Assembly (NCBI GenBank): GCA_951406725.2
Contig: OX597815.1
Location: forward strand, 59,954,001 to 60,018,000
Length of the DNA stretch: 64,000 nt
Origin: Octopus vulgaris
Lineage: Eukaryota
Direction of reading: 5' to 3'
The notes below the pieces were generated by a model. It worked only from the letters and a program-made list of their open reading frames with translations, had not been told where the DNA came from and did no database searches. Position numbers and translations under genes: made by a program. Shown here in pieces: positions 5,849 to 51,245 of this stretch (its first letter is position 1; every line of letters begins with the position of its first letter).

Positions 5849-5930
5849 CTCTCGACATATGTTTCGAAGACAACATGGTTTCATTCCAAAGGAATAAAGG
5901 GTGAAAGATTCAATCTTCTCATCAGGAAAG
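5849..5930 (-). ncRNA. Type-I hammerhead ribozyme (canonical C3:G8 core), sense to the PLE
   Basis: CTTTC CTGATGA GAAGA-[long loop]-TCTTC GAAA CATATG TC GAGAG; palindromic stem III ACATATGT and GUC cleavage triplet. Confidence 0.8.
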
Positions 5931-6205
5931 AAAAGGAGCCTCTCTCAACACAAGACAAACAAAAATTTCGATGACTGTCTACATGGTAAACAAAACGATA
6001 ATATGTGTTTTAAAAAAACCGTTAGAAGAATTGACGTCAAAGTTAGATAGTAGGAAGAGAAGGGTTAAAGGAATAATAGGTAGGGAACAAGTGGAGAGGG
6101 AAGGGTACGTTGATTAAAAGAATGTTCAAATGCTTAGGAAAGAATTTCGCTATCGAAGTGGAGTGTACGTTAAGCTAATTGTTCAAACCACAATGACTAT
6201 CGTAA

Positions 6206-7765
6206 TCATTTATATGAGTAAAAAGTATGTTTCTGCCAGTGTTTACATTTGTACGATTTCTCTATGAGTGTGTTTACAAGGGGGTCCTTAGAGAAGAGAA
6301 TATGGAAGAGTTCAGAGTTGCAAATGTTACAAAATCTCCTGCCCTTATCAAAAGGAAAGGATACAGATAGTATGAACCAATCTAACTTAAAATCTTTATT
6401 ATTGTCTTTAAGACGCCAAACTAATTTACTTAGTCCTGTATTATGTCGTTTTTTACTATCCCTGAATGTTGAATAATGGTTTGAAATCCTCTTGGATAAC
6501 TGGGAAGTAGACGCTCCTATATGGAAGAAGACATCGGTACCGGAAGAGATTCTACACTGGTAAATTGAATTCTTAATCTTAGAATTACTAGACAAAAATT
6601 TAATTCTGTTGGGGTTGTCCTCCGAGATCGAAACGAAGTTTTTATTGCTATGATTGTTATTACTATTATTATTAGCGCCAACAACTACACTATTCCTATT
6701 ATTATTAGTATTATTAATGGTAATACAACCAATAATACCATCAACAACAATACCGTTATTGTTATTACCATTAACATTACCATTGTTATTAACACGACTA
6801 ATACTATTATTATCATCATTGTTAACACTATCACTACTACCATGGCTATTACTGAGTTCATAAGTACCAGTTACGCCTTGTTTGTCTCCTCTGTGTTTAG
6901 CCCCTTGTGGGTAGTAAAGAAATATTACTATTAATACTATTCCTATTATTATGATTGTATGATGGGTTGGAATTAGCAAGATTAATGCTGGAACTCCCGG
7001 GTGAAGAATCTTTATTTAGCAGCTTGGTATTGTGAGAAGATATAATTTGTGAAAGATTTCTAGTGTTAGAGAAAGCGATTCTAACTATGTGGGAATTGAT
7101 AATAGAATAATATCTAGAATTTTTGGGAAAGTTCCTAGCAACGGCTTCACGGAACTGCAAGGGAAGATTCGATTTAATTTGTTTTCCGAAAGGTATTACG
7201 AACCAGATACAGTTTTTAGTGACCTTTGAATTGTACGTAGTGTTATTTGTGAAAGTAAGGGGAAAATTTCTGGGTTGGAAATTTGAGGTTGAACGGCGCT
7301 TACCTCCCCTGGTCCGTAAGGAATTTATATTATATATAGGGCTGCTTGCACTATTAGAATTAAAATCACTATTCCTATTACAAGTAACTATTCTATCTGG
7401 AGAAGCAGATGTTGGTTTAGAATGAGCTGAATCGATGTATGATACTTTCTCCTTATAGCCGGCTTTTAACAAGGCGGCGTTATAGAAGTCTGCCTTTTGG
7501 TTAAAGATGTCAACATTGGCAGATAATTTAGACAGTCTCAGAGATATGTTTTTGACTAAATTATCGGTAACTGGCCTAGCATGATTACTGTAAAGGCTAA
7601 TATACTTAAGATTTGTGGAAGGTTTATGATAAGGGAAGTATAAGTTATTCTGTAAATTGAGGGTAATGTCTAAGAAGTTGGCTTTAATTAACTCATCGTC
7701 AAAAACGATGCGCAAGCCCATTCTACTAAAAAACCTAACTAATCTGTTCTTAACCTTCTGTATTT
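6206..7765 (-). pseudogene. Penelope RT thumb, Asn-rich linker and GIY-YIG endonuclease (interrupted)
   Basis: NFLDITLNL..PYHKPSTNLKYISLYSNH; WFVIPFGKQIKSNL; SIYQCRI..FHIGASTSQLSKRISNHYSTF..TGLSKLVWRLKD..CNICNSE..CKH. Confidence 0.88.
6860..6927 (+). mobile_element. Short SINE 3' fragment inserted in the Penelope ORF
   Basis: taagtaccagtt...ccttgtttgtc..tgtttagccccttgtgggta.taaagaaata matches the tail of the SINE at 38268-38490. Confidence 0.7.
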
Positions 7766-7968
7766 TTGATTTGAAATGTTTTAATCAACGTACCCTTCCC
7801 TCTCCACTTGTTCCCTACCTATTATTTCTTTAACCCTTCTCTTCCTACTATCTAACTTAGACGTCAATTCTTCTAACGCTTTTTTTAAAACACTTATTGT
7901 CGTTTTGTTTACTATGTAGGCAGTCATCGAAATTTTTGTTTGTCTTGTTGTTGAGAGAGGCTCCCTTT

Positions 7969-8050
7969 CTTTCCTGATGAGAAGATTGCATCTTGCACCC
8001 TTTATTCCTTTGGAATGAAACCATGTTGTCTTCGAAACATATGTCGAGAG
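7969..8050 (+). ncRNA. Type-I hammerhead ribozyme (inverted pLTR copy)
   Basis: CTTTC CTGATGA(7974-7980) GAAGA...TCTTC GAAA(8034-8037) CATATGTC GAGAG. Confidence 0.8.
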
Positions 8051-47916: not shown

Positions 47917-48834
47917 CTTCAATCATATTGTATCGTAAAGTAGACACAATACCTTAAATATTGGGCCTGAAGTGCTGACTTGGTGCCCTGCTGTAGTTCT
48001 GAGCTCGCTGCTAGCAAATTGATTACAGATTAGAACCCGAAACCTTATTCGAGACGTCATCCAATCCCGTCAATATTTACTTCACTCTCCCTATTTCTGA
48101 GAATATTTACCTCCAGCATCAATCCACGGCTGCACATTGCAAGAGGAAAATGTTTAGGGTCTTCTTCTGAATGAAATGAACAGGAGAGGTGAACTGAAGG
48201 TTGACGGATGTGTTAACGGAACAACTTCAGCAACAATATCAGCAACACATCATCACATGTTGTACACAGAACACTGCCATAAACTGACAGTCACAACAGT
48301 AGAGGGGATAGAATACTAAACCTAAGGTTTTATTTGAGGGACAGCTTGGTGATGCAGCAAAGCTTCAACTTCCCCAATCTCTGTCATTGCATAAAACGCC
48401 ACCACCGTGCACCCGTACAGCACCATACCATATTGCTATAGCATTTTAAAGGATCTCCCCCCTCTCTCATTAAGCCCGAATAAACATAAGAAATACACAC
48501 ACACACACACAAACAATCAAGCAGAGAAATAATTGCAGCCTCAGTGGTTTCACGAAATATTAAAGAAAGGTGGTGTGGAGTATTTGACCGACAGAATCAT
48601 CTTAATACAGAAAGGACAAAGGCCATAATATAGTCGTCATATCTAATTCGACATTATCACATTTGATAATAGCAATCCTGGATAACATGTTATCTAGACC
48701 TACATTATCAAATGTGATAATGTAGTTTCTAGATAACTTGCCGTAAAATATAAAGACGGAATGGGTACGACTAGTGCGGCTTTGAAGATTACTGTTTAAA
48801 CAAGGCTAGCTTGGCGCTAAACAACAATGATTCC

Positions 48835-49005
48835 AAGCAGGAAAGCAAACAAGCAAGCAGGCAAGCAAGCAAGCAAGCAAGCAAGCAAGCAGGCAAGCAA
48901 GCAAACAGGCAAGCAAGCAAGCAGGCAAGCAAGCAAGCAAGCAAGGAAGCAGGCAAGCAAGAAGCAAGGAAGCAGGCAAGCAAGCAAGCGAGCAAGCAAG
49001 CAAGC
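48835..49005. repeat. (GCAA)n microsatellite
   Basis: Directly visible. Confidence 0.95.
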
Positions 49006-49959
49006 ACTACCACCACTACAAAAGGAGCATGTACGTGGTCGCTCAAAGAGCAGCCACAGAACCGTGGCATTAAATTTCACTACCTTAAACAAGGAAAAGA
49101 AGGGATAGTTACAGGTTGAATATTTTCCATCATAGATCAACTCAAAGAGGATAGATCTGGGGTCAAACAGCAACAACAACAACAATATCATGAACATTAA
49201 GCATAAGAAAAGAACTAAAAAAACACAAAAATAAAAGAAACAAAAGGCGATAACGTTGGCTTGTAACGTGTTAAATAAAGGGAGATAGCCGACATTGATC
49301 TGTGATAACTGTCGCCAGACGCCACCATCCTCCATTAAAGAAGGTGTCATATGATGTATGTTATAAGCGGCCTACAATATATGTTGTAGCTCATGATATA
49401 AATCTAGTCTCAAGTTTCGTAAAGTGCGAAGAAATATAGGAAAGAAAAACTGATGTTAATGTTCAAGCTGGTTTTATCGATTTTTCAAGTAACGTTTTAG
49501 CTGTTTTAATTTATTTTCGTAATGGCGACACTGCTGTGCCAACTACGACGCCAGCAATTCTTCTTTTGTATTTGCTTTTGGTTTCCCATTTTTCTTTCTT
49601 GTACTCATTCTTTACTTCAATATTTCTTTCGTTCTTCTCTTTCTTTCTTTCTTTCTTTCTTTCTTTCTTTCTTTCTAAACGATATGGGGATAAATAGACG
49701 TACAATACCTGACACAATAATATTCAGGGTGAAGAGATGCAGCGAAGATATCGTTAAACAGCACAACAACGAATCTAGAGGCAGAATTAAATAATTTATT
49801 TCTGGCTAATGTTGGAAAGACGTACTCACACATACACACACACAAATGTGGCTGTGTATGAATAAATATACATATACATACATAATACAAGCATACATGC
49901 ATATACACACATACGCATATATATATATACACACACATATAACTACATACATATTCTTT

Positions 49960-51245
49960 ATCAAGAGTATTAGTGACAGTGACTTCGAAGTTTCGACCAG
50001 CTAAGATATCATCGGTCTGTGGTGCATTTGAGGTCATCTTGGCATAATATAGGCTCTGTTAAACTTTTCTGGTGTAAGTAGCTACACCAGAAAAGTTTAA
50101 TTTAACAGAGCCTATATTATGCCAAGATGACCTCAAATGGATATACTGAATGATAATTTGGTTATAGAATAGGTTATGAATGGAAAGGTATTTTAGAAGA
50201 TATTTATTGATTAATTTTGGACTTATGTTATTGTTCAGAATTCAGTCATACACGTAAAACTTTTTAATCAGGTGTGTCTATTCATGTGTGTCAGCTTCAG
50301 ATTTTGAAGTTGTTTTTTAAGGTTTCGGAAAAGAATGTAGGTTGGTGAAAAGGTTACTTGATCAGCAGATTTAACCTTTTGCTTTGGAAATGTGGTGGGT
50401 ATAGTTCAGAGCCGTGTTATGTCGTTTTTCTTGTTTGGGTTGCGAAAATTGTGTGTGTTGTATGTGTCGATTTTTGAACTAGTGTCTATATATGTGTATG
50501 CAGCAGCGCTGTAGTGTTCGGGGTTACAGTTGTCCTGTGGACAATATTACTTGTGAGACAGTTTCCGTTTAGAGGGCAAGGTAGAGAGGTTGTAAAGTTG
50601 CACTTGCTATGTGCGTGGTTTTGGCTTTCACTTTTAGAAAGTTTTAGGCTGGTGTAAATGGCTATAGTCTTTTCGAGTTATTAGTTGTGGAATATGACAT
50701 TTTTATGTCGTGTTTGTTAATTAGTTTATGATTCTTGTAGCTGGGGTGGGAGGGCTTTTTGGAGTATTCTGAAGAATTATTTAGCTACTGTACGTTGTAC
50801 GTTGAACTTTTCTTTTTTCTACTCATGGTTTTATTTGTTGTGGATGTGTTATTGTTTATATATCGTACTTTTTCCGTGTAACAGCCATTGTTGAGAGCTT
50901 CGTTATATGGAGTTGCTATTTTATTGAGTATTTTTCCATTGAAAGATAAAAAAGAAAGTCTTGGAAATATGCTCCTTATCAGCTCATTAGTTATATTTTT
51001 TTTAGTAGTTAGATTGACTACGTATATACTGGATTTTTTTTGCGTAGAGTTTATAAATAATGGATTCTAAGTAACGAGTAGCACAGAGAAAGCTGATTGA
51101 TTTGAGATATGTTTGTACAGTAATGGAGAATCCCATGTTTTTAAAAATGTAATGTAGTTCTTTCCTAAATTTGTCGGGATTTTCTGGGTTGTAGTTTCTT
51201 AGTAGATGAAGACCGTAAAAGGTCTTTCGCAGTAGGATGAGTTTG
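49960..51245 (-). mobile_element. Decayed Penelope-like element (RT thumb to GIY-YIG, 3' pLTR)
   Basis: DKFRKELHYIFKNMGFSITVQTYLKSISFL..IQYIRSQSNY; CPLNGNCLTSNIVHRTTVT. Confidence 0.75.
49976..50020 (-). ncRNA. Hammerhead-like motif (U4C) at the 3' end of a PLE
   Basis: ACAGA CCGATGA T ATC-ttagct-GGTC GAAA CTTCGAAG TC ACTGT; palindromic ACTTCGAAGT stem III, GUC triplet; stems I and II imperfect. Confidence 0.55.

Follow-up and report, generated by a model that had tools for sequence, protein, structure and literature searches.

A window of 64,000 nt from the 2.8-Gb genome of Octopus vulgaris (contig OX597815.1, positions 59,954,001 to 60,018,000) holds hammerhead ribozyme motifs in and around Penelope-like elements (PLEs), and across the families of such motifs in this genome the pair between core positions 3 and 8 occurs in all four Watson-Crick versions, C:G, U:A, G:C and A:U. 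It is probable that type-I hammerhead folds lie in the terminal repeats of several unrelated PLE families and of one retrozyme, that their 3:8 pair was compensated in master copies and that they would cleave weakly, as dimers and with assistance from a protein. That the genome contains a complete natural 3:8 series, with G3:C8 (of two origins) and A3:U8 as working cores of autonomous PLEs and with mismatched intermediates and an A9C core amplified, is a tentative proposal that we would not yet call probable.

A sequence-only reading of the window had named 12 motifs and their core types, and at all 12 positions a relaxed-core parse recovered a type-I hammerhead-shaped motif with the core as named. 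In the strict scan positions 3, 7 and 8 were left free and U or C was allowed at position 4, with a stem I of at least 4 bp, a stem II of at least 3 bp and a perfect stem III palindrome; GA, GAAA and UH were fixed in the patterns, and the conservation of these letters is not independent evidence. Under these settings 8 of the 12 motifs formed the three-way junction around N3-N4-G5-A6-N7-N8-A9 / G12-A13-A14 / U16.1-H17, compared with 0.08 on average, and never more than 1, in 60 dinucleotide shuffles. Given by the position of N3 and strand, the matches were C3:G8 at 5925 (-) and 7974 (+), G3:C8 at 25502 (+), 35315 (+) and 44597 (-), U3:A8 at 37000 (-) and 37200 (+), and C3:G8 with C4 at 40629 (-). 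The four that remain, at 31747 (+), 41547 (-), 44778 (-) and 50015 (-), are decayed and fail because of broken stems, though their cores read as named. A looser filter took three of them and was dropped, since its 12 window matches were not above chance (shuffle mean 5.5, maximum 14). Support for the motifs at 31747 and 41547 comes instead from genome-wide families, and for those at 44778 and 50015 from their shape and the PLE coding remains upstream. The 3:8 pair is Watson-Crick in all 12, and the canonical CUGANGA core is present in two (5925 and 7974), the others being U3:A8, G3:C8 or C4 variants. An Rfam scan of the window showed no hammerhead family among the 150 listed of 296 matches, which were mostly microsatellite noise.

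The 12 motifs represent 8 families and about 10 insertions: 5849 and 7969 mark the two arms of a single inverted insertion, as do 36964 and 37194, and the motifs at 25495 and 35308 lie in two copies of one composite repeat of ~2.2 kb. With 8 repeat families as its source of motifs, the window samples, somewhat densely, repeats that occur genome-wide, and the notion of a covariation series belonging to one locus had to be given up. In 60 stretches of 10 kb taken at fixed round coordinates (600 kb), the strict scan found 17 matches compared with 0.7 in shuffled sequence, so that here, as in the window, shuffled rates were not similar. By 3:8 state these were 7 C:G, 5 U:A, 2 G:C and 3 other; 14 of 17 were thus Watson-Crick against a chance expectation of 0.27 (p 3e-6), as were 11 of 14 once copies in one locus had been collapsed (p 9e-5). 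Matches whose stem III had only 2 nt (4 vs 2.9 shuffled) were treated as chance and left out. A scan of 1.97 Mb of targeted, overlapping loci gave 174 distinct matches, compared with 6 and 2 in two shuffles, with a Watson-Crick majority in 7 of 7 multi-copy clusters and 9 of 14 singletons.

The genome was then searched with family patterns, again with positions 3, 7 and 8 free; reversed controls gave 0 in every case, and counts per 100 refer to the first 100 listed rows, scored by eye. Seven families were counted, namely the G3:C8, A3:U8, 37-kb, 31.7-kb, 41.5-kb and 40.6-kb families and an A9C sister of the G3:C8 family. The majority 3:8 state was Watson-Crick in all seven, so non-pairing combinations are not as frequent as pairing ones in family consensuses. 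The G3:C8 family returned 4,918 matches, of which 110 were non-G3 and 262 had G3 without C8, leaving 4,546 G3:C8. U:A was found in 100/100 rows of both the 37-kb family (1,356 matches) and the 31.7-kb family (2,888 matches, stem III ACCGGT). The 41.5-kb family (349 matches) had per 100 rows 59 U:A, 39 U.G, 1 A:G and 1 C:G. In the 40.6-kb family (12,969 pattern matches) 95/100 were C:G, with position 4 being C in 69, U in 29 and A in 2.

The G3:C8 motif is the end of the ~1-kb pseudo-long terminal repeat (pLTR) of an autonomous PLE. In the window it stands at 25495..25545 (+), with a 7-bp stem I, a bulged G, a 5-bp stem II and the palindrome AATATT, at 35308..35358 (+), identical to the former and not an independent insertion, and at 44555..44604 (-), in a short solo arm of the youngest subfamily. 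The parent element has open frames of 839 and 1,025 codons with reverse transcriptase (RT) and GIY-YIG, in which DKSG, YVDD, a CxxxCxxC linker and a GIY-YIG-like end can be read (loci L258 and L259). A protein atlas places the frame among RVT_1/HTH_animal/GIY-YIG clusters, with relatives labelled RT; Pfam and PDB sequence scans of it gave no match. The linker of L258 is CxxxCxxC and that of Neptune/Nematis CX2-5CxxC (PMC8557442), our GIY-YIG tree having been built without reference PLE proteins. The pLTR, with a hammerhead, an inverted 5'-truncated arm and a tail at one end, has the layout of endonuclease-bearing (EN+) Penelope-like elements. Of the 30 GIY-YIG copies most similar to the query (96-100% identity), 26 have an intact G3:C8 motif 0.8-1.2 kb downstream, one has a 1-nt deletion in the motif and three are without it; a different core occurs in none of them. 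The motif is also present in all 8 of the long-frame copies that were fetched (681-1,025 codons) and in 8 of 20 older GIY-YIG copies (6 G:C, 2 G:G), the other 12 being without the family motif within the 2 kb fetched. The G3:C8 state is kept across subfamilies that differ in loop II and across old and young GIY-YIG-linked copies.

A sister family, 54% identical to the G3:C8 element in protein, has copies 99-100% identical and frames of up to 1,312 codons. The stem II of its hammerhead is homologous to that of the G3:C8 family, and 97/100 of its rows are C3:G8 (3,813 matches); an older related family with homologous stems is C:G in 58/80 rows. Because both relatives are C3:G8, these sequences indicate that G3:C8 was likely derived from C3:G8. 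Among mismatched rows of the G3:C8 family, G3:G8 accounts for 37/100 of the 262 (about 97 copies) and C3:C8 for 9/100 of the 110 (about 10 copies), yet each requires the same kind of transversion; no C3:G8 row was found among the non-G3 and non-C8 rows examined. This suggests G:G as an amplified intermediate, although a mutational hotspot may have produced the G3:G8 excess.

Several observations concern the copies of this element and its sister. Solo short arms mostly start about 20-25 nt upstream of G3 (L192:6575-6610; window 44597-44625), at a site that in long copies looks like an initiator or, with its branch point, pyrimidine tract and AG, like a splice acceptor; the 3' ends of arms fall at two fixed points separated by about 56 nt, in many cases within TA repeats. 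Assembled contigs of runs X1, X3, X7 and X17 (three organisms) cover the pLTR, contigs being unable to show RNA ends or strand; they contain loop II variants, and at the 10% level no variant is listed for core positions 3 and 8. In the sister family A9 is retained in 8/100 copies (loci L396-L403, e.g. L396:1126-1175). The composite repeat, present in the window as copy 1 (24786..27257, +) and copy 2 (34564..36795, +), combines a head-to-head fragment of the G3:C8 pLTR with a piece like a short interspersed nuclear element and ~107-nt subrepeats, and it forms tandem arrays of at least 13 copies (L031-L034). A tandem 2.18-kb array of G3:C8 copies was considered as a PLE tandem and rejected, as it is this repeat and has no coding. 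In a transcript that reads through both inverted arms, the motif is predicted to be buried within a long hairpin. The 5' end of the repeat presumably resembles Helentron-type non-autonomous elements, and an intronless 352-codon frame directly beside the array (L031:1022-2080, -) resembles a polysaccharide/chitin deacetylase in its motifs.

The set of four natural 3:8 pairs in the genome is completed by a second PLE family, absent from the window and reached through a purine-3 pattern (156 matches, control 0). The generic purine-3 pattern gave no excess over its reversed control (4,418 vs 5,266) and was used only as a lead; a frequent 'ATGATTA...AGCGCT' family was rejected as A3:U8, because it is a canonical CTGATGA core whose reading had slipped by 3 nt. 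In the A3:U8 family stem I has 6 bp, stem II has 3-4 bp and the palindrome is ACCGGT; per 100 rows the family contains 81 A:U, 13 G:C, 4 A:C, 1 C:C, 1 U:C and no G:U (Fisher p 4e-13 for the association of positions 3 and 8, computed on copies, which are not independent). GIY-YIG lies about 245 nt upstream, in sense, in A:U and G:C copies alike, and 15 loci with GIY-YIG upstream were examined further. A marker outside the motif is C in 7/8 G:C rows and 1/22 A:U rows, and by this linkage the G:C copies are a putative subfamily. A GIY-YIG tree of 18 rows groups this family as a single clade (96/94), with the U:A ACCGGT family next to it (86/99) and the large G3:C8 family far away; the deeper branches are long and uncertain. 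Because of this distance, G3:C8 arose at least twice.

A link to an RT/GIY-YIG frame was found for five window families and two further families. The sequence-only reading placed the hammerhead in sense and on the 3' side of GIY-YIG in three places, and this held well at two of them. At 5.9 kb, a C3:G8 hammerhead with stem III ACATATGT and a long loop II (5849..5930, -) lies in the 3' pLTR, 284 nt downstream of the GIY-YIG of a 5'-truncated PLE coding remnant (6209..7784, -; RT C-terminus 7401-7784, GIY-YIG 6209-6640), while the insertion's inverted arm holds a second C3:G8 hammerhead (7969..8050, +), the two arms (5792-6131 and 7769-8106) being 94% alike. At 44.8 kb, a decayed U3:A8 hammerhead with ACCGGT (44742..44784, -) is 554 nt downstream of GIY-YIG remains (45332..45739, -). 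At 50 kb, a decayed C3:G8 motif with C4 and ACTTCGAAGT (49976..50020, -) follows pieces at approximately 50250..51450 (-) in which a broken RT C-terminus was recovered by tblastn and GIY-YIG-like stretches by eye only, in broken frames; no relatives of this motif were found among the fetched loci, and since one copy was seen, its C4 may be decay rather than a variant. The 41.5-kb motif (U3:A8, AGCGCT, 41511..41553, -), in which a C.C mismatch closes stem II and stem I has 1-2 bp, adds a case which that reading had not included: it is in sense and 3' of a GIY-YIG domain with a CxxC-type linker (42766..43302, -; Pfam PF01541 E 0.002, below the curated cut-off).

Genome-wide, GIY-YIG was linked to the 31.7-kb family in 5/20 loci and to the 37-kb, 40.6-kb and 41.5-kb families in 0/30 each (30 loci each, within 1.5 kb); despite this, locus L336 ties the 41.5-kb motif to its window domain. 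The window copy of the 31.7-kb family is a decayed U3:A8 hammerhead (31741..31782, +), and the GIY-YIG at 31925-32230, downstream of it, is read as a separate insertion. The 40.6-kb motif (C3:G8 with U4C and ACGT, 40599..40633, -) belongs to a short repeat family without an RT/GIY-YIG coding link in 30 loci; its mobilisation by a PLE is possible, because inverted pairs occur. At 37 kb, U3:A8 hammerheads with ACGCGT occupy the left (36964..37006, -) and right (37194..37236, +) arms of a head-to-head inverted insertion (36794..37407) of a ~362-nt non-coding element of retrozyme type. Its family has a 362-nt tandem unit and no long frame, fitting a 170-400 nt unit with a type-I hammerhead, and the circle is predicted to fold at -125.7 kcal/mol, compared with -79.4 for shuffled sequence (z about -10). 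Its loop 1 TAC and loop 2 CAA(A)TA presumably resemble the tertiary-contact loops of canonical hammerheads. Judged by these features, the 37-kb family is a candidate non-LTR (long terminal repeat) retrozyme in the sense of PMC7229834. The head-to-head insertion of the unit with a truncated inverted arm has the footprint of a PLE (window 36794-37407; L197). The claim that PLE lineages have diversified the ribozyme core stands for the 3:8 pair, where the A3:U8 family even widens the series; it does not extend to the 37-kb pair, a non-coding retrozyme, nor to the 40.6-kb family with its 0/30, and U3:A8 and U4C were known before.

When eight sequences were folded, the stem I pair probability was at least 0.89 in 7. 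The lowest-energy predicted homodimer was a double hammerhead, with stem III formed between the copies and the stem I strands swapped, in 3 of 8 (the 5.9-kb, 37-kb and A:U motifs). In the mechanism that we propose, compensatory 3:8 changes would likely arise in master copies. Two identical motifs on a tandem transcript would pair through the stem III palindrome, swap their stem I strands and cut weakly as dimers with the help of the element's protein; a palindrome would be required, since each partner is a copy of the same sequence, and divergence of stem I would yield family specificity as a by-product. As insertion can use uncut RNA, selection on catalysis would be weak or intermittent, and lineages would multiply through mismatched states (U.G, G:G, A9C) before compensation. 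Over long times selection would be strong enough to restore the 3:8 pair and too weak to stop mismatched lineages from spreading. The U.G state in the weak-stemmed 41.5-kb family and the G:G intermediate show that families multiply with cores expected to cut poorly, and selection on catalysis looks weak or intermittent because the U3·G8, G3:G8 and A9C states were amplified.

A number of results weigh against compensated, dimer-cleaving cores. The lowest-energy predicted dimer of the large G:C family and of the U4C motif is not the active form, and the AATATT stem III pairs weakly (-0.2 kcal/mol). Non-pairing states have been amplified, with U3·G8 in 39/100 rows of the 41.5-kb family, which also has the C.C mismatch and almost no stem I, and with G3:G8 in about 2% of the G3:C8 family. 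The sister family, the youngest, is A9C in 91/100 rows of its 3,813 matches, with a non-palindromic stem III and a stem I of 3 bp. The pLTR tree of the A:U/G:C family is star-like and does not resolve the G:C subfamily as a clade, 16/50 rows having been dropped for unrelated flank. Finally, independent compensatory events are few, roughly five.

Part of this evidence would also fit a fold maintained because it serves the PLE protein as a structural signal or because it overlaps promoter, splice or start-codon signals, many families no longer cutting and compensation preserving the fold rather than catalysis. We consider this rather unlikely, though A9C is nearly fixed in the youngest family, the U.G and G:G states were amplified, and the G3:C8 motif lies about 23 nt after the splice-acceptor-like or initiator-like site. 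Moreover, according to PMC11167929, catalytic mutations left in vitro insertion unaffected, and reads with an end at the cut site were absent. Against it, the 3:8 pair is one that forms in the active conformation, as the available text of PMC3884650 has it, and all four Watson-Crick solutions recur.

The sequence-only reading had also proposed that stem III palindromes are a selected self-recognition code that blocks cross-family dimer cleavage, which now appears very improbable. We compared the palindromes of 13 families in 14 rows (the A:U/G:C family counted twice), giving 90 cross-family pairs. Palindromes do differ among most window families, as had been noted, and stem III is incompatible in 79 of the 90 pairs; however, the 31739 family has ACCGGT, the same palindrome as at 44742 (its window copy reads ACCAGT), and among the 13 families ACCGGT is common to 4, AGCGCT to 2 and ACGT to 2. 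Stem III is fully compatible in the remaining 11 pairs, in 10 of which the cross stem I has only 0-2 bp, the eleventh being a pair of related families. Stem I alone therefore separates families, and as a heterodimer of the double hammerhead needs both helices, it already gives specificity. A palindrome is expected simply because two identical copies pair, and the sister family, the youngest, does without one. On the 18-row GIY-YIG tree ACCGGT follows the phylogeny for the two sharing families that could be placed, which does not support a code, and cross-talk should be small, given that dimers have been reported within a single tandem RNA (PMC4209133). That the variant cores are inactive founder mutations which spread with successful elements or through amplification at the DNA level, the Watson-Crick pattern being a coincidence of few events, is hardly credible: many G3:C8 copies do ride in one composite repeat with tandem arrays and the state of each family may stem from one founder, but chance Watson-Crick pairing of 0.27 contrasts with 7/7 family majorities and 11/14 collapsed random matches (p 9e-5), C:G to G:C takes two transversions and A:U versus G:C two linked transitions, and G3:C8 persists across loop II subfamilies and across old and young GIY-YIG-linked copies.

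Cleavage by minimal PLE hammerheads is weak, and they depend on a second copy for the formation of stem III (PMC4209133). Those described there share with ours the pLTR position, a palindromic stem III, the bulged base between 9 and 10.1, opposite-strand pairs, many families per genome and the dimer model. In the available portion of that study U3-A8 is covariant (about 1,300 matches in S. mansoni), with one UUGAAGA (U.G) row, and the Fig. S3 rows examined have the cores CUGA..GA, UUGA..AA and one UUGA..GA, with no G3 or A3; here, in contrast, G3:C8 and A3:U8 are family-majority states, and the stem III palindromes are longer (4-10 nt). The accessible parts of PMC11167929 report that an engineered C3G/G8C partly rescues single mutants of a PLE hammerhead, that cleavage needs the PLE protein and that uncut RNA is the insertion substrate. 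They also describe PAc, an Anolis Poseidon element, with a pLTR hammerhead near the start of the open reading frame, as here, and two RT start sites giving a 'tail', to which the two fixed 3' points of the G3:C8 arms may be compared; C3G/G8C is engineered there, whereas in the present genome an autonomous family with a CxxxCxxC linker has this pair naturally. The core variants of Perreault et al. 2011 (PMC3088659) include natural U3-A8 covariation, U4C from a viroid and tolerated mismatches at 10.1-11.1, and the part of its text at hand names no natural G3-C8 or A3-U8. Dimer-cleaving PLE variants with a short palindromic stem III, as here, were described by Lunse, Weinberg and Breaker (2017), as summarised in available text of PMC6765202. 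Metazoan non-LTR retrozymes, as the accessible text of PMC7229834 and bioRxiv 10.64898/2026.07.22.740005 presents them, share with the 37-kb family the ~362-nt non-coding tandem unit, the type-I hammerhead, a strongly self-paired circle (predicted) and PLE-style insertion; the family differs in its U3:A8 core and is known here from DNA alone.

U3:A8 in PLEs, U4C, the palindromic stem III and dimer cleavage are thus already published. Literature text searches, which cannot see figures and covered some sources in part, gave no natural G3-C8 or A3-U8, G3-C8 appearing only as an engineered pair (PMC3884650, PMC11167929); with figures likewise out of reach they gave no report of A9C, a natural A9U having been reported (PMC10085705). 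Provisionally, then, what seems new is natural G3:C8 (two origins) and A3:U8 as predicted hammerhead cores in coding PLE families, together with amplified mismatched states. Active hammerheads are typified by the C3-G8 pair, for which the papers covered report U3-A8 as the only natural swap and G3-C8 only as a laboratory mutant of partial activity. High-copy G3:C8 and A3:U8 cores beside C3:G8 and U3:A8 relatives offer ready-made pairs for asking whether PLE hammerheads must cut, a question left open by PMC8557442 and PMC11167929. If the proposed reading is true, these repeats would be a copy-by-copy record of a catalytic RNA core crossing inactive states under protein assistance. Standard descriptors undercount these motifs, because the CUGANGA core is present in only 3 of the 14 Watson-Crick matches of the random 600 kb; if the proposed reading holds, CUGANGA-based searches would miss most hammerheads in such genomes.

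Further features were observed in passing. Many canonical C3:G8 motifs have stem II extensions of 40-65 nt and stem III palindromes of 8-12 nt, like the window motifs at 5849 and 7969 (L045, L057, L038, L204, L211, L292, L389). In a U3:A8 ACCGGT family (L201:7059, +), stem II leaves two unpaired bases before G12, as in the 44.8-kb window motif, possibly an insertion variant. Elsewhere in the window, Tc1/mariner-like transposase remains (4267-5239) lie between ~205-nt inverted repeats (3976-5592), and at 32747-34351 (-) there are endonuclease/RT remains of a long interspersed nuclear element, RTE-like by its motifs. Abundant repeats ending GAAA-GGCC-TC with small hairpins upstream (e.g. C1:30894-30920, C1:53834-53868) are possibly hammerheads with a branched stem II and a core further 5'.

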